From IMG/VR virus record IMGVR_UViG_3300045988_134170: 18,865 bases of DNA. One strand, 5' to 3'. Below are positions 4,057-18,865 of this stretch, in pieces. Below the pieces are notes generated by a model that saw only the letters and a program-made list of their open reading frames with translations, was not told where the DNA came from and did not search any database. The position numbers and the translations under genes were made by a program. The DNA is from a virus. Each line of letters begins with the position of its first letter. Position 1 is the first letter of the stretch.

Positions 4057-5511
4057 ATGATTACGCAGCAGGATAAAAGAGTGGGATTATGGTGTGCGGA
4101 TAACGTCATACGCTTTACGGACGGCACCGTCCTGCGTAGCATCACCGCACCTAACCGCCTTTTGGCGTCCATCATGTCAGGCGGCAGACTCACCGTCTAC
4201 ATGACCGATCCAGACGTTTTAGATCCGTTCGTGGCACATGTCGTACATTCCCTCCCTCACAACGAGCATAATTCCAACTTGAGCTGGGATGCGATAGTGT
4301 CGAAAAAAGGCAAGTTTTTCGGCTTTAGCGTGCGTATTGATAAAGAGAACTCGGCACGTTTTTTCGACATATCGAATCTTTTACGAGAGAACTGCCGTAT
4401 CACCATGACCGACACGCAACTGCTCAACATCCTGCGAGAATACGACGATCGTGGCTTATGCAAGATAACGGCAGGTGGTGCAAGCATGGAGGCGTTCGCG
4501 TCCGGCGAGTGGAAATGGTTTTACGACAAATTTCCACAGCTTGAGGATGAAACCAAAAAGTCATTGCATGACGCCTATATAGGCGGCTTCATGCTTGTCA
4601 AAGAAGGGGTTTATGGCAAGGCTGTCGACGTTGACTGTAATTCTATGTATCCGGCTATATTACGAGATGAGTGGCTGCCGTGGAGCGAACCGGAACCATA
4701 CGAAGGCCGATACGTGCAGGACAATGACATGCCGTTGCATTGCGACGAACTCACGTTTCGCGCGGAACTCAAACCGGACGGATATCCTTTCCTGCTCGAC
4801 AACCGCAGCGTGTACGGACTCAACCGACTTACCTCGACACGTGGTTACATCACGCGTGTACTTACCGACATTGACCAAGAACTGCTTTACCAGAATTATG
4901 ACGTGAGTATATACCGGCACGTTAGAGGGTGGAAGTTCAGGCGCTCCAAAGGCTTCTTCCGCTCGTTCATAGATGAGTGGGGGGGGTTGAAACAGCGGGC
5001 GACGGGCGAGACACGGCAGATGGCGAAACTCATCATGAACGCTCTTGTCGGCAAAATGGCGAGTCTGCCAAAAGGCGCCGTCATGCTACCAACCTCCAAA
5101 GACGGCATCACGTTGGACTGGAATGTCACGCAACGTGAAGAATCGAATCTAAAAACCGACTATCTTCCCGTGCCTATTTGGATCAACGCCTACGCACGCC
5201 GCAAGCTTATGGACGTGTGCCATGCGAACGCCGACCGGCTGCTATATGCCAATACGGACGGTTGCATACTGAGCGGTTGGGGGCCGGTGAAATCATGTGA
5301 CATCCATCCAACCGAAATCGGCAAATGGAAAATCGCCGCACGATACGAGAAATTGACTATCCTTGGCATGAACCGCTATCAAGGTTGGCGTGATGACGGT
5401 GAAGTGGATGTCTGCATGGCCGGAAACGTGTTTACGGAACCTATTCCGTACGAGCAATTCCGGCATGGCGTGCAAGTCATGGATGATTATGGCACAATGG
5501 TCATGCTATAA
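4057..5511 (+). CDS. Family-B, protein-primed-type DNA polymerase (484 aa)
   Basis: Motif A is VDCNSMYP (phi29 DVNSLYP). Motif B is KLIMNALVGK (phi29 KLMLNSLYGK). Motif C is YANTDG (phi29 YCDTDS). KITAGGASMEAF and DAYIGGF align with phi29 RMTAGSDSLKGF and YAYRGGF. Confidence 0.9.
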   Translation: MITQQDKRVGLWCADNVIRFTDGTVLRSITAPNRLLASIMSGGRLTVYMTDPDVLDPFVAHVVHSLPHNEHNSNLSWDAIVSKKGKFFGFSVRIDKENSARFFDISNLLRENCRITMTDTQLLNILREYDDRGLCKITAGGASMEAFASGEWKWFYDKFPQLEDETKKSLHDAYIGGFMLVKEGVYGKAVDVDCNSMYPAILRDEWLPWSEPEPYEGRYVQDNDMPLHCDELTFRAELKPDGYPFLLDNRSVYGLNRLTSTRGYITRVLTDIDQELLYQNYDVSIYRHVRGWKFRRSKGFFRSFIDEWGGLKQRATGETRQMAKLIMNALVGKMASLPKGAVMLPTSKDGITLDWNVTQREESNLKTDYLPVPIWINAYARRKLMDVCHANADRLLYANTDGCILSGWGPVKSCDIHPTEIGKWKIAARYEKLTILGMNRYQGWRDDGEVDVCMAGNVFTEPIPYEQFRHGVQVMDDYGTMVML

Positions 5512-5512
5512 T
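5504..5512 (+). promoter_or_regulatory. Extended -10 promoter TGCTATAAT overlapping the pol stop codon
   Basis: TG at 5504-5505 and TATAAT at 5507-5512. No ORF follows. Confidence 0.5.
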
Positions 5513-5518
5513 GTTCGT

Positions 5519-5688
5519 GTCTTCCTGAGCATTGATTTTCGGCTGGGAGCAACATAAGTCGGATTGCCACGGCTGAAAACGCCGCCGACTATGGAGTCGC
5601 TACCGTGGCGGTAGTGCCCTACGGATTTTCGACTTGATGCTCATATAGGACGTTCCGACCCTCCGTGATTGGAGGGTCATTTTATTTT
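5519..5688 (+). ncRNA. Candidate structured ncRNA of about 170 nt (pRNA-like?)
   Basis: A promoter at 5504-5512 and an intrinsic terminator at 5657-5688 bracket a region with no ORF longer than 7 codons. The 10-bp helix 5526-5535/5634-5643 closes a 118-nt domain. Inner helix 5563-5572/5603-5612 and hairpin 5586-5599. Confidence 0.45.
5657..5688 (+). terminator. Intrinsic terminator
   Basis: GACCCTCC-GTGATT-GGAGGGTC followed by ATTTTATTTT. Confidence 0.8.
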
Positions 5689-5696
5689 CCGCCGCA

Positions 5697-5705
5697 TGAT
5701 ATAAT
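5697..5705 (+). promoter_or_regulatory. Extended -10 promoter TGATATAAT for the structural operon
   Basis: Lies directly after the terminator and 37 nt upstream of ATG 5742. AAGGAG RBS at 5729-5734. Confidence 0.6.
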
Positions 5706-5741
5706 TTTAATGGAAATACTACCAGCGTAAGGAGCATTTGC

Positions 5742-6020
5742 ATGGCAGATCCAAATACCGAAGGCGAGGAAACCACCACTCCGCCGCCGACCGAAGAGGA
5801 ACAGCAGACGGAAACCGTGGATGATGAAGTCAAGCCGAAAGAAGAACCGGAACCGGAACCGTCCGAACCGGACGTAAGCGCGCGCCTTGACAGTATCGAA
5901 AAGGAATTGGCCGCATTGAAGGCCATGCTGGACACGCTCGGCTACACCGAACCGGCACCGTCCGACAACGACGGCGACAACGACGGCGACGGCGAGTCAA
6001 TCGAAGATTTGTTCGACTAA
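5742..6020 (+). CDS. Putative scaffolding protein (92 aa, very acidic)
   Basis: Immediately upstream of the capsid gene, like phi29 gp7 (about 100 aa). Contains a helical segment ARLDSIEKELAALKAMLDTL, an EPEPEP stretch and a DNDGDNDGDGE tail. The 12-nt unit GACAACGACGGC occurs twice at 5964-5987. Confidence 0.6.
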   Translation: MADPNTEGEETTTPPPTEEEQQTETVDDEVKPKEEPEPEPSEPDVSARLDSIEKELAALKAMLDTLGYTEPAPSDNDGDNDGDGESIEDLFD

Positions 6021-6036
6021 AAGAAAGGTATAAACA

Positions 6037-7758
6037 ATGTCCAATATTCGACCACTTGCAGGTAAAGGTGATGTTGAGATTTTCAACGCCGTACGTAGTG
6101 CCACCTCTCCCCAGTTTCAGGTGCGCATTCCGTCCGCCACTCAAGGCAATATTCGCAACGCGGTGGATACCATGCGCAACTTCCCCTATCTGCGCGATGA
6201 GTTCACCGGCGTGCTGATTCAGCGTTTGATTGGCCTTTACGTCCAACATGCCGACTGGGATGATCCGCTTAAGCTTATTGGCTCGCCGCGCACCCTCAAG
6301 CGCTACGGCAGCACCTACGAACAGGCGGCAGTAGGCTTGGTCAAGGCACGCACTCGTAATTTCAATAAGGAGTATCTTGGAGATGACGTGTATGGCCGTT
6401 ACTCGCTGCCGACTGCTTCGGTGTTCCACCCCCTTACTTTTGACCATTATTACCCCGTTACCGTTCCGGAGGATGCGCTGCTGACCGCATTCGACGGCGA
6501 AAGCGGCATGTCGGATTATATCGCGGAGATTATGAACGCTCCGATTCTATCCGACCGAAACGACATGTACCTCATGAAGGTGCAGACGTTCGCGGAATAC
6601 GCGCGTAAGGGCGGTTTCTACCGCGTGCATACCCCCGACGTTGGCAAGGCCGACTCGACTGAAGCGGACGCGAAGGGTCTCTTGCGTCTCATTCAGCAAG
6701 TGGCGAATGAACTCAAGGCGTCGCCAATGAGCGCCATGCCACGCTACAACGCAATGAGTTGGGTCACCCCTTGGCGCGACAGTGAAGCCATTCTCTTCGC
6801 CACTCCGCAGGTTATCGCCGCGCTCAACGTCGAAGCACTCGCCGCCGCGTTCCACATCGATAAAGTCAACGTGCCGTATCGCATCATCCCGATTCCGGAG
6901 GATATGTTCGGTATCGGCGGTGCGGCCGGTAAGGTGCAGGCTGTGCTGACCACGGAAGACTTCTTCTTCTGTTGGGACGAAATGCTTGAAACCACCAACT
7001 CTCCCGTCAATCCAATTGACGGCACGCGCAACATCTTCTATAAGCATAGGGGGTCTATCACTCCGAATCCGTTCGCCAACGCGGTTCTCTTCTGGACCGG
7101 CGAAGGCTCCAATGAGTCCGTGACCCTGCCGGATACGCTCACCACCTCGAAGCCTGAGTTCACTCTGCGCGTGCGCAAGTATGGACAGCCCGCCATCACC
7201 CCCCAAAACGTTTCTCGTGGCGACTTGGTGCAGGTCGAGTCCGTCATTACCAGCGCCAACAAGGATACGGCGTCGTTCCAGCCGGTCGGCATCAAGTACA
7301 CGCTTGAGGGTGCCACCTCACAGTTCACGTCGATTGATAACGACGGAATTTTGCGTTGCGGCCTTGACGAAACCGCCGAAGAGCTCAAGGTCACCGCTCA
7401 GGCAACCTACATCGATCCCGCGCATCCTGAAATCGACCAGACGGTTTCCGCCGCATTGTCCGTGCCGGTGGTTGGCGCATGGCTCGGTGGCTGGAAGGCA
7501 GGAGCCATCGAGTCCATTGAGATCCAGGGCGAAAAGTCGGTCAAGGTTAAGGAGCATGTAGCACTTAAGGCGATTGCCACCAAGACGGACGGCAACACCG
7601 CAGACGTGACCAACCTCGCCATGTGGACTGTGGACGCTAATGCGACTGTCACACCCAACGGCGTGCTGACTGGAACCGTGGCGGGCACTGTCAATGTTTC
7701 CGTGAAGTTCGCGGGAGCTGCTGGAACGGCGAAGGTCACCGTTACCGCCGCCGCCTGA
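6037..7758 (+). CDS. Major capsid protein with C-terminal Ig-like (Big_2-type) domain, 573 aa
   Basis: Largest head-module ORF, located after the scaffold gene. The C-terminus (IEIQGEKSVKVKEHVALKAIATKTDGNTADVTNLAMWTVDANATVTPNGVLTGTVAGTVNVSVKFAG) has the typical Big_2 pattern. phi29 gp8 has the same HK97-fold plus BIG2 layout. Confidence 0.8.
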   Translation: MSNIRPLAGKGDVEIFNAVRSATSPQFQVRIPSATQGNIRNAVDTMRNFPYLRDEFTGVLIQRLIGLYVQHADWDDPLKLIGSPRTLKRYGSTYEQAAVGLVKARTRNFNKEYLGDDVYGRYSLPTASVFHPLTFDHYYPVTVPEDALLTAFDGESGMSDYIAEIMNAPILSDRNDMYLMKVQTFAEYARKGGFYRVHTPDVGKADSTEADAKGLLRLIQQVANELKASPMSAMPRYNAMSWVTPWRDSEAILFATPQVIAALNVEALAAAFHIDKVNVPYRIIPIPEDMFGIGGAAGKVQAVLTTEDFFFCWDEMLETTNSPVNPIDGTRNIFYKHRGSITPNPFANAVLFWTGEGSNESVTLPDTLTTSKPEFTLRVRKYGQPAITPQNVSRGDLVQVESVITSANKDTASFQPVGIKYTLEGATSQFTSIDNDGILRCGLDETAEELKVTAQATYIDPAHPEIDQTVSAALSVPVVGAWLGGWKAGAIESIEIQGEKSVKVKEHVALKAIATKTDGNTADVTNLAMWTVDANATVTPNGVLTGTVAGTVNVSVKFAGAAGTAKVTVTAAA

Positions 7759-7778: not shown

Positions 7779-7817
7779 AATAGGTGTGAGAAGATAATTC
7801 TCGCACCTATTATTTTT
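7779..7817 (+). terminator. Intrinsic terminator or attenuator after the capsid gene
   Basis: 13-bp stem AATAGGTGTGAGA / TCTCGCACCTATT with one G-U pair, a 7-nt loop, then ATTTTT. Confidence 0.7.
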
Positions 7818-10106: not shown

Positions 10107-10118
10107 AGGACGGTGATT

Positions 10119-11054
10119 ATGAGCAAACGCAATAACGCAAGGAAGGCCGCGCACTGGGATAACCAAAGCGTGCTCGGCTCCATGTGGGGCAATTTGAATC
10201 TGCCCGAAATGCGGCAAAGCCTGCGCATCAATCAGTACATGAAATTGATTGAAATGTTGGCGGTGAGCCGGTTCAAATGGATTAATTTGCCTCCGTACAT
10301 TGACGAACGATATTTGGAACTGACTCTATTCGAGAACGGTTTGGCACTCTTCTTCCCCGATAAACGCAAGGGAGTGAATCGTTTCATGGTCACGTCGGGC
10401 AATATCGGGGGCGTCAATAATTACAACAATCCAACCTCGTTCCAGCCGGTAGCCACGAATTACTCGCACCCGCAAATGGGCTCGAAAGAATGTGTCCCGA
10501 TTTGGGACAACCAATTACGTTGTACCATGATTGATGTCATGTGGAATTACGCCACGCGATTGGCGATTGCCGACCGCGCGCTTGACGTCAACTTGGACAA
10601 TATCAGCGTGCCGTTGATTATCGCCACGTCCGAAACCAACAAACTCACCGTCCAAAACCTCATGAAGGCGCGTGAAGACGGAGATCCATACGTGTACGCC
10701 TACGATTCGGCGGATATCACCGGTATGTTTCAGACTTTTCCGAACATGACGCCGTTTTTGGCGGACAAAATCATCACGACGAAAACGCAGATTTGGAATG
10801 AATTAGTCAACTATCTTGGCATCGACAACAGCACGACGGAAAAGAAGGAGCGACTGCTTGAGTCGGAAGTCACGGCCGGAAACAGTCGTACGAACGTTTT
10901 CCGCTTGAGCTATCTTAAGGCACGTCAACAGGCGTGCGATACGATTAACCGGTTGTGGCCGCAAATGGCCGACTCGGGGCATCCTATCGGCATCGAGTGG
11001 AACGACACTACGAGTGGTGGCTTGCTGGACGTTGACGGAAACAAGGAGGAATAA
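10119..11054 (+). CDS. Head-tail connector / upper collar (portal) protein, phi29 gp10-like, 311 aa
   Basis: Clear matches to remembered phi29 gp10. [28 protein letters not shown] matches [57 protein letters not shown] matches [42 protein letters not shown] matches SREEACEKINELYG. ATG 10119 (AGGA 8 nt upstream) is preferred to GTG 10113. Confidence 0.9.
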   Translation: [311 protein letters not shown]

Positions 11055-14525: not shown

Positions 14526-14542
14526 CCTTGGCCGACAACAAT

Positions 14543-14570
14543 AGCCATACACTATACTTAGTGTATGGCT
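14543..14570 (+). promoter_or_regulatory. Perfect 11-bp hairpin containing the start codon of the tail lysin gene
   Basis: AGCCATACACT-ATACTT-AGTGTATGGCT, followed by ATTACTTTT. ATG 14565 lies in the 3' arm. It may also terminate the fibre gene transcript. Confidence 0.7.
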
Positions 14571-15788
14571 ATTACTTTTGATGATTGGATAAAACAAACT
14601 CAAGGCCGGTTTTGGGACATGGACGGGGCGTACGGCGCGCAATGCTGGGACTTGTGGGCGAAATACTGCATGGACTTATACGGCGCGTCCGTAAGCGACT
14701 GCATCACGCCAACCGGATACGCCGAAGGCAACTACACACGCTTTCCGACGAACGCGAAGATGGCGCAGATTTTCGAGAAGAAACCCGCCGACTATTCTCC
14801 CGTCAAAGGCGACGTGGCGTTTTGGGATTTTTCCAGCCAACACACCGGATCGCACGTGAGCATTGTCATGGAGGACGGCGTGCATGACGGGCATATCACC
14901 GTCCTATCGCAAAACCCTAATCCGACACAGCGCATGACGTTCGACCTAACTGCGTTCTTAGGCTATCTGCACCCCAAAGCGCTAGGAGAGGGGGGTGGCA
15001 CGACCTCGACGGAAAATAACCCAACCGGGGACAATAGTCACGGTTCCGCCGATTCCGCGCGTGGTGGCGCGTGGATACATTGGCAGGGCGACAATTTGTA
15101 TTTACATGAGTCCGATAATACCGGAACGCGAACTCGCATATTCTACAAGACAACGGCCAATAATTTTTTGGAAAAGGCGGCACGACCCCAACCGTCCAGC
15201 AACAACGGACAAGCGCATCCTTCCATGTCTTTGTCGGCGGAAAACTCATATGCTTTGTACGTGATTGGGACCGTCGAAGCGGGATTGCGTTGGGATGCCG
15301 TGGAAGCCGCTAATCTCCAAGGTGTTGGAATTGCTCAATGGAGTTTCGAGCGCCGCTTGCAGGTGCTGAACGCGATGAAAGCCGCCGACCCCACCGGATA
15401 TAGCGCGTTTAAGGCCGCCGCGCCTGAAATCGCGTCTCTTATGGAGTCGGGCGGTACGTTCAAGCGTTCGCTCACTTCGGCGGAAGCGGCCGCGTTCCGC
15501 ACGTGGGCGGGGCGGAGTGAGTCGCGTGATGGTCAGCGCAAGCAGTTCGCGGAGGATTACGCAGGATATCCGGAAGAATATAGCGACACGAAAATGCAGA
15601 TTCTTTGGGTGACGGCGTACCATCAATCGCCCGCGAACGCACTGAAAGTGCCGAAGGCGTCGAATCTCGCACAGCTGAAAAGCAACATTCTCGCCACGTT
15701 TCCGTTCGGCCCGTACACAACACGATACAATCAGGCATACTCGCTTTTGAGCGTGTGGGATGGCAAGTCTAATCCGCCCGCATTCTAA
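14565..15788 (+). CDS. Tail-associated peptidoglycan hydrolase: N-terminal CHAP plus C-terminal lysozyme-like domain (407 aa)
   Basis: CHAP signature DMDGAYGAQCWDLW...GDVAFW...GSHVSIV...SQNPN. Gly/Ser/Thr linker. The C-terminal GTVEAGLRWDAVEA...GVGIAQWSFERRLQVL resembles phage tail lysozyme domains. Same position as phi29 gp13. Confidence 0.75.
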   Translation: MAITFDDWIKQTQGRFWDMDGAYGAQCWDLWAKYCMDLYGASVSDCITPTGYAEGNYTRFPTNAKMAQIFEKKPADYSPVKGDVAFWDFSSQHTGSHVSIVMEDGVHDGHITVLSQNPNPTQRMTFDLTAFLGYLHPKALGEGGGTTSTENNPTGDNSHGSADSARGGAWIHWQGDNLYLHESDNTGTRTRIFYKTTANNFLEKAARPQPSSNNGQAHPSMSLSAENSYALYVIGTVEAGLRWDAVEAANLQGVGIAQWSFERRLQVLNAMKAADPTGYSAFKAAAPEIASLMESGGTFKRSLTSAEAAAFRTWAGRSESRDGQRKQFAEDYAGYPEEYSDTKMQILWVTAYHQSPANALKVPKASNLAQLKSNILATFPFGPYTTRYNQAYSLLSVWDGKSNPPAF

Positions 15789-15802: not shown

Positions 15803-15865
15803 TGATAGTGGCGGTGGTTATGTGATGACCTTTCCTTTTTGAACGGCCGCCATATTGATAGGTTG

Positions 15866-15901
15866 GTGGAGGGCGTGCGAGTCATGGCGCACGCCCTCCA
15901 C
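15866..15901 (+). promoter_or_regulatory. GC-rich perfect 14-bp hairpin with no U-tract
   Basis: GTGGAGGGCGTGCG-8 nt-CGCACGCCCTCCAC. It ends 6 nt before the AGGAGGG RBS of the ATPase gene. Confidence 0.7.
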
Positions 15902-15922
15902 TGTCTTAGGAGGGTTGCAAGC

Positions 15923-16990
15923 ATGACATTGCAGACACTCAACGAGAGCGACTATTACGACCTGCACAATTTGCTCACGCGAAACGCGCCGTGGAATTTT
16001 GTTATCGGCGCGCGTGGCTTAGGCAAAACGTTCGCCGCGAAACGGTACGGTATCAAAGAGTACATCAAGCACGGCTACGAGTTCATTTATTTGCGCCGAA
16101 CCGACGTGGAACAGCATAGGAAAGAGACCTTTTTCAAGGATATTCAGGAATTTTTCCCATCCTACGAATTTCGTGTCAACGGTGAAAAAGGGCAGATTCA
16201 TAAAACATCGTGGGATGAAAAGGATTGGCGGACATGCTGTTATTTCGTCGCTCTCTCGCAAGCGGGCGGACTCAAGTCAGTGGCCTATCCTAAGGTACAC
16301 TTGATTATTTTCGACGAAATCTTTCCAGACAATCTCAGATTCTTGAGCAATGAGGTAAACAGTTTTTCCGAATTTTACAACACGGTAGACAGATGGCAAG
16401 ACCGAACAAAAGTACTATTCCTATCGAACGCAGTTCAAAAGGCTAACCCCTATTTCGCCAAATACCGGTTAGACATTGGAGCACAGCAGGCCAGCCGACA
16501 ACAATACAAACTTTACTGTGGTGGCTTTATCTGTCTCGAACTGGCCGACTATGGTGGTTTTTCGGCCAAAGTCGCCAAGTCAAAGTTCGGCAGATTCCTG
16601 GAACGGTACGATGGCGACTATGCGGATTACGCGATTCGTAATAAATTCCGTGACGAATCGGACACTTTGATAGCGCCAATTCCTAGCGACGGTGAACTGT
16701 CCTACATTCTGGACACTACCGACTACTCGCAGTTCGGCATTTGGGTGAGCGTGTCAGAACGCGACGGTCGTGTTTCACAATATGTTTCACGACGCATTCC
16801 CAAAGACAACAACCGCCCCGTCTACACGCTCGACACGAGCCATGTCGACGAAAAAACATGGTACGTCAAAAAGTCGGATGATATTATCCGCCGACTCACT
16901 ACCGGATATCGGCTTGGTAAAATCAGATTCGATGACTCACAAGTCAAAGCCGACTTTGGTTTAATCATCGGAGAACTGCTAGGCAAATAG
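15923..16990 (+). CDS. DNA encapsidation (packaging) ATPase, phi29 gp16-like, 355 aa
   Basis: Walker A is GARGLGKTF and Walker B is VHLIIFDE. The size is close to gp16. ATG 15923 has AGGAGGG 8 nt upstream. The track start at 15839 would read through the hairpin. Confidence 0.8.
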   Translation: MTLQTLNESDYYDLHNLLTRNAPWNFVIGARGLGKTFAAKRYGIKEYIKHGYEFIYLRRTDVEQHRKETFFKDIQEFFPSYEFRVNGEKGQIHKTSWDEKDWRTCCYFVALSQAGGLKSVAYPKVHLIIFDEIFPDNLRFLSNEVNSFSEFYNTVDRWQDRTKVLFLSNAVQKANPYFAKYRLDIGAQQASRQQYKLYCGGFICLELADYGGFSAKVAKSKFGRFLERYDGDYADYAIRNKFRDESDTLIAPIPSDGELSYILDTTDYSQFGIWVSVSERDGRVSQYVSRRIPKDNNRPVYTLDTSHVDEKTWYVKKSDDIIRRLTTGYRLGKIRFDDSQVKADFGLIIGELLGK

Positions 16991-18209: not shown

Positions 18210-18240
18210 AAAGCCCCTAGGCTGTCGGCCTAGGGGCTTT
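18210..18240. terminator. Bidirectional intrinsic terminator between convergent genes
   Basis: 13-bp stem AAAGCCCCTAGGC-TGTCG-GCCTAGGGGCTTT. The A-run on one side and T-run on the other give a U-tract on both strands. Confidence 0.85.
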
Positions 18241-18252
18241 TACTTTTATATG

Positions 18253-18510
18253 TCAGTCGCCGTTGTCAATCGAAACAGTATATTCGCGGCACGGGCGCCC
18301 TTCCTTGGAACGGCTTTTAGCGACCATGTTGATATCGTAGTTATCACCCAAGAAAACCTCTACGATACCCGCAAGCGCCCGACGAAACGAAAGAACAGAA
18401 TCTTCTTCCAGTCCATCGATGGAAGTGAAGCCATTCCAAACTCCCTCGATAATCACTTTGTATCGATTGTCCTTCTCGAACTCGATAACATGTGCAGTAA
18501 GATTAATCAT
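18253..18510 (-). CDS. Hypothetical protein (85 aa), possibly HicB/UPF0150-like fold; start codon lies inside ITR-R
   Basis: The ATG is the complement of 18508-18510, i.e. the mirror of ATG 356, and uses the same ITR RBS. The pattern YKVIIEGVWNGFTSIDGLEEDSVLSFRRALAGIVEVFL resembles HicB-type N-domains from memory. Confidence 0.65.
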   Translation of the reverse strand: MINLTAHVIEFEKDNRYKVIIEGVWNGFTSIDGLEEDSVLSFRRALAGIVEVFLGDNYDINMVAKSRSKEGRPCREYTVSIDNGD

Positions 18511-18543
18511 TTTATTTTCCTTTCCCTTGAAGCGGATAACTAC

Positions 18544-18552
18544 ATTATAACA
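18544..18552 (-). promoter_or_regulatory. ITR promoter P2 (mirror copy), extended -10
   Basis: Reverse complement of 314-322. Confidence 0.55.
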
Positions 18553-18666
18553 CAAACAAAACAACAACACGCCCGAAAACAAAACGAAGCAAAACACTGG
18601 AAAACACCTACTTACCGGTCGGTAGGCTACGGTTACGTTACCGTAACTTAGCGGGACACGGATTGT

Positions 18667-18695
18667 TGTATATACAACCATTGACACAGTGTCAA
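18667..18695 (-). promoter_or_regulatory. ITR promoter P1 (mirror copy), TTGACA-17-TATACA
   Basis: Reverse complement of 171-199. Confidence 0.55.
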
Positions 18696-18865
18696 TAAAA
18701 AAAACAACACGCCCGAAAATAAAAAAACTTAACAGTCAGACGCAAAAAAAATATAATAGAGGAGTAAACAAAACAAAGCGCCAACGGAGACGCAGAACAA
18801 AAAAAAATAACACACAAATAAAAAAAACCACAAGGGAAAATCTTCACACACACACACACCCCTCC

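Follow-up and report, generated by a model that had tools for sequence, protein, structure and literature searches.

Reviews up to 2024 describe packaging RNA (pRNA) as unique to phage phi29 and related Bacillus phages (PMC11476376, PMC5066667). For the Streptococcus phage Cp-1 a pRNA was predicted, which is not reliably recovered by the covariance model of Bacillus pRNAs (PMC6266182). In this study, we analysed a viral DNA of 18,865 bp (IMG/VR record IMGVR_UViG_3300045988_134170; this whole stretch is called the window) and in it an interval of about 170 nucleotides (nt) between the gene of a protein-primed DNA polymerase and a scaffold-like open reading frame (ORF). An earlier reading of the DNA, here called the original prediction, had proposed the interval as a candidate pRNA and had held pRNAs to be established experimentally only for Bacillus phages, in agreement with the reviews cited above. 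Comparative evidence shows that a real non-coding RNA, structured and conserved, lies in the interval, which probably encodes a divergent counterpart of the phi29 pRNA. Topology, covariation and motor genes uphold the candidate, while two inner helices that had been drawn for it and a match to the Rfam pRNA family (RF00044) fell away.

Results

Covariation in the interval

Homologues of the interval were collected first by scanning viral contigs for a motif and then by a locus search based on the polymerase; of the 85 obtained, 82 are distinct, and this set includes members without the motif used in the first scan. In all, over 85 additional contigs of viral or metagenome origin contain the interval. 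A metagenome scan gave mostly chance matches, with at least 10 true members among the matches listed, and was uninformative beyond the viral set. In five related GenBank phage or virome records the interval is 77-81% conserved and annotated in none (0/5); no public record seen carries an annotation of the element, which also escapes detection by Rfam.

The structure was derived from RNAalifold and manual inspection of a MAFFT alignment. In a plain MAFFT alignment of 71 sequences (A2), the 5' end of which is misaligned, 93.4% of cells are paired and 14 pairs change on both sides, whereas shuffles yield 8.5 +/- 1.6 such pairs and slid controls 4-7. A covariance-model alignment of the 82 distinct sequences (A5) has 98.4% of cells paired and both-side changes in 22 of the 37 pairs, where shuffles gave 9.1 +/- 1.7 (none of 500 reached 22) and slid controls 3-8. 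Compensatory changes in related genomes, named as a check by the original prediction, are thus strongly supported in both alignments. The most divergent members (L143, L146) replace entire helices yet keep the pairing, as is also seen for every pair of arm 2. G-U pairs are frequent, with U-G in 44/82, 70/82 and 49/82 sequences at three pairs. Because these would be A-C mismatches on the opposite strand, the + strand is the RNA strand.

Mean column identity was 0.80 for the RNA, 0.78 for the 3' end of the polymerase gene and 0.80 for the next ORF. By codon position, identity was 0.78/0.82/0.81 in the RNA, without third-position periodicity, compared with 0.85/0.92/0.57 in the polymerase; both flanking genes show the third-position relaxation that the RNA does not. 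The minimum-free-energy (MFE) fold of the single interval has a z-score of -3.3. It recovers the closing helices, a check named by the original prediction, but not the inner arms. The core consensus has -33.5 kcal/mol compared with -47.6 kcal/mol for the MFE fold, since the consensus leaves large loops open.

The conserved fold

The elements of the fold are listed in Table 1. P1a begins at the predicted transcription start, 7 nt past the -10 element. P1b extends in the window genome to 5526-5535/5634-5643, which is the closing helix of the original prediction; this helix is real, and its fully paired 6-bp core shows exchanges between AU and GC. It is completely rewritten in two members, to AAGUGU/AUACUU in L143 and to GAGUCC/GGGCUC in L146. 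The mini-hairpin has weaker support than the other helices, with two pairs that change on both sides, each in single sequences only (L048, L146). P2 is neither supported nor contradicted by covariation, because GGG/CCC is invariant in 82/82 sequences.

The lower helix of arm 1 shows exchanges such as UA 69 / CG 6 / GC 2, CG 62 / UA 10 and UA 36 / UG 22 / CG 15. The arm 1 loop reads UGAGAAU or UGAAAAC, with the two changes occurring together, in nearly all members, even where the helices are fully rewritten. This constancy suggests a sequence-specific recognition of the loop.

The inner arms differ in part from the original prediction. Its 10-bp helix 5563-5572/5603-5612 competes with the covarying helices 5570-5573/5581-5584 and 5598-5604/5610-5616, but its central 4 bp (5566-5569/5606-5609) are retained as a contact between the arm 1 bulge and the arm 2 loop. 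Its hairpin at 5586-5599 occurs in the window genome only, whereas the family pairs 5585-5589 with 5558-5562. Two other pairings were tried and rejected. The MFE helix UUUUCGGCUG/CGGCUGAAAA (5536-5545/5570-5579) has an A-C mismatch in five of the first six sequences, and its 3' strand sits in a covarying helix. A pairing of GAGAAU in the arm 1 loop with the AUUUUC copies was discarded as well, since the copies vary without matching change and give way to unrelated sequence in both L143 and L146.

The internal loop of the closing helix carries on both strands a direct repeat, GAUUUUCG, at 5533-5540 and 5624-5631. In L146 both copies have become UCAUGG, and the corresponding site of a more distant clade (clade B, see below) reads ACUGU on both strands. 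The repeat could be a two-fold protein-binding site.

Bulge-loop complementarity

The bases GCCA (5566-5569), the last four of the arm 1 bulge, are complementary to UGGC (5606-5609), the last four of the arm 2 loop, and 97.9% of the cells are paired in the 82 sequences, although this pairing was absent from the model used to align them. The first pair is GC in 65, GU in 10, AU in 7 and AC in none of the sequences (Fisher p = 5e-6, phylogeny ignored); every A is opposite a U, and such A-U pairs occur in no fewer than five separate lineages (L003, L048, L078/L137, L138, L143/L167). The second to fourth pairs are CG 82, CG 78 / UG 4 and AU 74 / GU 1 / other 7. A pair of loops with 4-nt complementarity, for which the original prediction had advised a search, is therefore present and covaries. 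Pattern scans for variants of the central bulge bases (GDCACGG..., GCRACGG...) matched only unrelated coding DNA, and the two central bases thus appear fixed.

Comparison with the phi29 pRNA

The phi29 topology was read from the RF00044 structure line on the phi29 genome (Rfam match, 145 bits). In topology the window RNA equals this consensus element by element, as the original prediction had anticipated when it called the layout very like that of the phi29 pRNA. Both RNAs have a domain I closed by a 5'/3' helix (98.5% and 100% paired for the two window helices) and a three-way junction with identical arm order, first the C/E arm, then the D hairpin abutting the closing stem. From the closing stem, the junction to arm 1 measures 1 nt in phi29 and 5 nt in the window RNA. 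The lower helix of arm 1, with a small 5' bulge in both, has 9 and 8 bp, respectively, the 5'-only bulge 9 and 7 nt, the upper helix 4 bp in both, and the loop 6 and 7 nt; the 3' strand of the arm is continuous in both. The junction to arm 2 comprises 3 nt in phi29 and 4-5 nt in the window RNA, the arm 2 hairpin 6 and 7 bp with a 5-nt loop in both, and arm 2 returns to the closing stem with 0 nt in either RNA. The phi29 pRNA has AACC and GGUU at the same positions of bulge and loop that hold the complementary bases of the window RNA.

The phi29 pRNA is 174 nt long and the window RNA is predicted at ~170 nt. Each has a promoter of its own (predicted in the window) and a terminator hairpin, and in phi29, too, the 3' domain before the U-run is a hairpin (PMC5066667). 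The phage type is common to both, with gp10 connector, gp16 ATPase and a protein-primed linear genome. The two RNAs differ in G+C content (0.54 in the window RNA, 0.41 in the phi29 pRNA) and in orientation: the window RNA lies on the same strand as all other genes, whereas the phi29 pRNA is transcribed away from the structural genes from an early promoter.

Transcription signals bounding the interval

An extended -10 element overlapping the polymerase stop codon, an intrinsic terminator, and a second extended -10 element behind it were all found where the original prediction had placed them. The interval between them is likewise ORF-less, with no + strand ORF of at least 50 amino acids (aa) in 5558-5741, and scans for tRNA/tmRNA genes and for tandem repeats found none. 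The first motif reads TG(C/T)TAT(A/G)AT across all family members and places the predicted transcript start near G5519; the same -10 motif is found at the polymerase stop in Bifidobacterium phage BadAargau2 and in the more distant clade C. The terminator ranks third of 28 terminator-like sites in a scan of the whole window, and its stem covaries (CG 47 / UA 21 and GC 37 / CG 23 in the MAFFT alignment of 71 sequences). The second promoter motif, A-T-G-(A/G)-T-A-T-A-A-T-T-T-T, is kept in the non-coding DNA of all of the first six relatives (6/6). The linker before the terminator, given as 13 nt in the original prediction, shrinks to 5 nt once the outer helix is counted.

The loop of the 3' hairpin carries the motif CGUGAUUG (window 5664-5671) in the window's own family (family A). 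The motif also occurs in all members of clade C, ~160 nt past the polymerase stop, and clade C was not selected by it. Since the loop motif is kept while the stems differ completely, the 3' hairpin, too, seems to have a sequence-specific role. In clade B, the 3' hairpin loop carries GCGAUUGC.

More distant clades

At the same place, two clades whose polymerase is 34-40% identical to that of the window carry a non-coding interval of 170-185 nt, in the order polymerase stop, interval, small acidic ORF and capsid gene. At the polymerase stop, each of these intervals opens with TGCTATAAT or TGCTACACT. The arm is designed as in the window RNA, with other bases forming the complementary pairs. In clade C (L162-L180), the fold consists of a long closing helix, a three-way junction and a hairpin with the 5-nt loop AGCCA, the closing pair of which covaries (UA 9, UG 5, CG 4). 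Its arm is composed of CCGACCG, a bulge ..AGGCA.., a 4-bp helix, a GUAAGG loop and CGGUCGG, and bulge and loop are complementary through GGC/GCC, extended to GGCA/UGCC in two variants. Clade B (L150-L161) has an arm of AGUCGCGCG, a bulge AAUCA, GCGA-UUGGGU-UCGC and CGCGCGGCU, with the loop GCUGAUAA; the complementarity is AUCA/UGAU and the second hairpin is weak. By chance, such complementarity would be expected at ~0.03 for family A, 0.035 for clade B and 0.19 for clade C. The RNA of clades B and C is the 5' end of the late-operon transcript, because their 3' hairpin lacks a U-run and no second promoter follows.

Other phi29-like phages

A structured interval also occupies this position in the honeybee-gut Bifidobacterium phages BadAargau2 (L096 13060-13226, - strand) and BadAztec1 (L097 12690-12854, - strand). 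It shows TGCTATAAT/TGCTATAGT at the polymerase stop, a closing helix GUGAGCG/CGCUCAC and a 3' hairpin without U-run. Two compensatory changes distinguish the two phages in a second helix. In these two sequences the inner fold appears unlike that of the window, and one loop, AAAGCUA, is self-complementary. A protein-based search with the BadAargau2 polymerase matched only itself.

For the Actinomyces phage Av-1 (L098, NC_009643), the host of which is likewise actinobacterial, the record annotates a 'packaging RNA' (misc_RNA 16295-16402). It lies at the right genome end and antisense to ORFs. Its folding is not better than that of shuffles (z = +0.5), and neither Rfam nor a covariance model built from the window family (model R1) gives a match. 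Besides an annotated -35 (4474-4478) and -10 (4498-4501), the gap between polymerase/ORF7 and ORF8 of Av-1 (4471-4611) contains a pair of small hairpins and a 14-bp terminator that immediately precedes the ribosome-binding site (z = -3.7).

Genome and neighbouring genes

The window is a complete linear genome of a phi29-like phage with perfect inverted terminal repeats (ITRs) of 359 bp (1-359 and 18507-18865), far longer than the annotated 6-bp terminal repeats of phi29. The ITRs hold ORFs, a near-consensus promoter (18729-18757, mirror 137-109) and a terminator-like hairpin (73-88, mirror 18793-18778). Every long ORF of the window is on the + strand. Among cultured phages, the window is closest to Bifidobacterium phage BP1, with 79% nucleotide identity across 56% of the genome, and to BD811P1-3; our literature search found no paper mentioning an RNA in these Bifidobacterium phages.

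The polymerase has 484 aa compared with 575 aa in phi29. Its Pfam match to DNA_pol_B_2 covers residues 137-383 only, and a tblastn alignment with the phi29 polymerase spans residues 132-441. Judged from these alignments, its N-terminal part is divergent or shortened. The gp10-like connector and gp16-like ATPase that the original prediction had recognised are borne out by Pfam (Table 1), and the ATPase is 30% identical to phi29 gp16 across residues 1-319 of 332. The connector has a basic N-terminus, MSKRNNARKAAH. A role in pRNA binding is named for the N-terminus of phi29 gp10 (MARKRSNTYRS) in the title of PMC1636484, and the resemblance between the two is a weak point for a pRNA, by analogy.

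The only perfect TTGACA-17-TATAAT promoter match of the genome is in the early region at 2099-2127, inside the ORF 1630-2163. A two-way terminator hairpin is located near the right genome end (18210-18240), and long A/T-rich hairpins with T-runs are found in the structural operon after the capsid gene (7779-7811) and after a 485-aa ORF (14540-14573).

Table 1. Elements of the window RNA, its flanking signals and the phi29-type genes of the window.
Feature	Coordinates	Strand	Remarks
Protein-primed family-B DNA polymerase	4057-5511	+	484 aa
Predicted extended -10 promoter TGCTATAAT	5504-5512	+	covers last codons and stop codon of polymerase gene
Predicted non-coding transcript, ~170 nt	5519-5688	+	domain I 5519-5651, 5-nt linker, 3' hairpin and U-run
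P1a, outer closing helix	5519-5523 (GUCUU) / 5647-5651 (AGGAC)	+	98.5% paired in 82 sequences; both-side changes in 3/5 pairs
P1b, closing helix	5527-5532 (GAGCAU) / 5637-5642 (AUGCUC)	+	100% paired; GC 68 / AU 10 / CG 1
Mini-hairpin UGA-UUU-UCG	5533-5541	+	5' strand of internal loop; 100% paired
P2 stem, base of three-way junction	5545-5547 (GGG) / 5617-5619 (CCC)	+	from RNAalifold; 3' strand 0 nt after arm 2
Arm 1 lower helix ('C helix')	5553-5555/5591-5593 and 5558-5562/5585-5589	+	both-side changes in 6/8 pairs
Arm 1 bulge AUUGCCA, 7 nt ('CE-like')	5563-5569	+	5' side only; last four GCCA (5566-5569)
Arm 1 upper helix, 4 bp ('E-like'), CGGC/GCCG	5570-5573/5581-5584	+	99.7% paired; CACC/GGUG in L146
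Arm 1 loop UGAAAAC, 7 nt	5574-5580	+	UGAGAAU in most relatives
Arm 2 hairpin ('D-like'), 7-bp stem	5598-5604/5610-5616	+	both-side changes in 7/7 pairs; 99.8% paired
Arm 2 loop G-UGGC, 5 nt	5605-5609	+	UGGC (5606-5609) complementary to bulge
Single-stranded linker, 5 nt	5652-5656	+	
Terminator hairpin GACCCTCC-GTGATT-GGAGGGTC and T-run	5657-5688	+	hairpin 5657-5678, U-run to 5688
Second predicted extended -10 promoter TGATATAAT	5697-5705	+	would serve 92-aa ORF and capsid gene
Scaffold-like ORF, 92 aa	5742-6020	+	
phi29-type major capsid protein (Phi29_MCP)	6037-7758	+	
gp10-type connector	10113-11054	+	PF05352, 2e-40
gp16-type packaging ATPase	15839-16990	+	PF05894, 2e-45

Discussion

The probable identity of the window RNA as a pRNA leads to a model that follows phi29. 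Transcription would start from the promoter at the polymerase stop and end at the terminator, releasing a stand-alone RNA of ~170 nt, the 5' and 3' ends of which pair to close a domain with two arms on a three-way junction. In analogy to phi29, each bulge might pair with the neighbouring molecule's hairpin loop ('hand in hand'), and the RNA ring so formed might sit on the empty prohead at its gp10-type connector. The gp16-type ATPase could then dock on the protruding closing helices and would pump the terminal-protein-linked genome into the head, and the RNA would leave after packaging. In clades B and C, the RNA would first need to be freed, either through partial termination at the U-less hairpin or through processing by an RNase.

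Several results weigh against a pRNA. RF00044 gave no match on the window at its gathering score, nor on 5350-5850 at E <= 10, so that the Rfam covariance search suggested in the original prediction came out negative with a model that scores 145 bits on phi29. Nor did Rfam scans of the window, of the interval and of six related loci find a pRNA or another credible family; weak snoRNA-type matches lay in the coding region and were set aside as noise. Conversely, model R1, run with filters off against phi29, BadAargau2, BadAztec1 and Av-1, returned only sub-threshold chance matches, and its weak matches in two clade B loci (L151, L154) fell inside the capsid gene and were discarded. Because neither covariance model finds the other RNA, equal architecture is demonstrated, not homology. 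The phi29 pRNA gene occupies the genome's left end, whereas the window gene lies between the polymerase and the scaffold-like ORF, at the early/late boundary. Unlike in phi29, a large internal loop and an extra mini-hairpin split the closing helix, while the innermost closing stem GGG/CCC never varies, and the fourth bulge-loop pair is U-U or A-C in 7/82 sequences. The bulge-loop contact could equally be an intramolecular pseudoknot; both arrangements give an identical sequence signal, which therefore fits either. The absence of a U-run and of a second promoter in clades B and C belongs here as well and leaves room for a cis-acting leader. Neither Curtobacterium phage Reje (L185) nor Eggerthella phage LE1-1 (L186), two phi29-like phages of other actinobacterial hosts, shows a comparable gap behind the polymerase gene, which confines the element at this position to clades related to Bifidobacterium phages. 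For the phi29-like phage asccphi28, the genome sequence is reported to give no pRNA evidence, and other phi29-like phages have been regarded as devoid of a pRNA (PMC7823558).

The main rival is that the interval acts in cis as a leader of the late (structural) operon, by processive antitermination or by controlling the stability or translation of the scaffold and capsid message. Transcribed first from the promoter at the polymerase stop, the domain would act on its own transcript and could alter the elongating RNA polymerase, which would then pass the hairpin or terminator behind it and others farther downstream. We consider this unlikely, although promoter, structured domain and terminator are the usual build of an attenuator, and the late operon of the window contains further terminator-like hairpins (7779-7811 and 14540-14573). 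In clades B and C and in BadAztec1/BadAargau2, moreover, the next gene's ribosome-binding site follows the element directly, with neither U-run nor new promoter, and the Av-1 gap comprises a predicted promoter, then a pair of small hairpins and a strong terminator just before the ribosome-binding site. In the window family, however, a perfect extended -10 element follows the terminator in all members, and the structural genes thus need no read-through. With a 5'/3' helix of its own the domain is insulated, and we found no antiterminator pairing with the terminator strands that follows the covariation of the stem: no segment of the domain has a complementarity that tracks it, and CUGGGAG is invariant while the stem alternates between CCUCC and CCCGC. 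Furthermore, no Rfam riboswitch, leader or antiterminator family matched, and a leader would leave the detailed resemblance to the pRNA layout unexplained.

A structured RNA that acts in trans in another role, for instance as a decoy or scaffold of a host or phage protein or as an early-to-late regulator, would also account for the predicted promoter and terminator. Its bulge-loop contact would be an intramolecular pseudoknot and its likeness to pRNA convergent. The conserved single-stranded parts (UGAGAAU, CGUGAUUG and the repeated GAUUUUC of the internal loop) resemble protein-binding sites, and no sequence relation to Bacillus pRNAs is detectable. Nevertheless, we regard this explanation as quite unlikely: no target complementarity or partner was identified, the agreement in helix lengths, bulge side, junctions and positions of the complementary bases would have to be coincidence, and the RNA is found in exactly the phage type whose motor proteins use pRNA. 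That the interval has no RNA function and is conserved only as DNA at a transcription boundary, with an early terminator and a late promoter, fits the terminator and the two promoters but is scarcely credible, as it does not explain 133 nt between the signals conserved like coding DNA, 22 compensatory pairs, strand-specific G-U pairs and 98% pairing.

If the window RNA is a pRNA, the RNA-dependent packaging motor extends beyond Bacillus phages. The pRNA family would be widened, and its required features would become visible, namely the topology, the 4-bp upper helix, the bulge-loop pairing and the loop sequences. It is tempting to speculate that packaging RNAs are an old, fast-evolving component of the phi29-like motor, overlooked as only the architecture is kept, and that phages infecting Bifidobacterium and its gut relatives encode them at the early/late boundary; to this broader idea we would give an even chance. 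RNAs of the clades made as the 5' end of the structural transcript would tie the supply of the motor RNA to capsid production. The cultured pairs BP1/B. pseudocatenulatum and BD811P1-3/B. dentium would offer a second independent system for the role of the RNA in the motor, and the RNAs themselves would be new self-assembling three-way-junction scaffolds.

Among known systems other than pRNA, the put RNAs of phage HK022 mediate processive antitermination and consist of two short stem-loops; they are not known to have a three-way junction or bulge-loop pairing. Like these RNAs and attenuators, the window RNA is a structured RNA that follows a promoter and is followed by a terminator ahead of a long operon; unlike them, it has a second promoter past the terminator, and no alternative antiterminator pairing was seen. 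Compared with phi29, the window RNA resembles pRNA in every feature that can be read from sequence, while model score and genome position place it outside RF00044. Unlike the pRNA predictions for Av-1 and Cp-1, the window RNA is supported by covariation.

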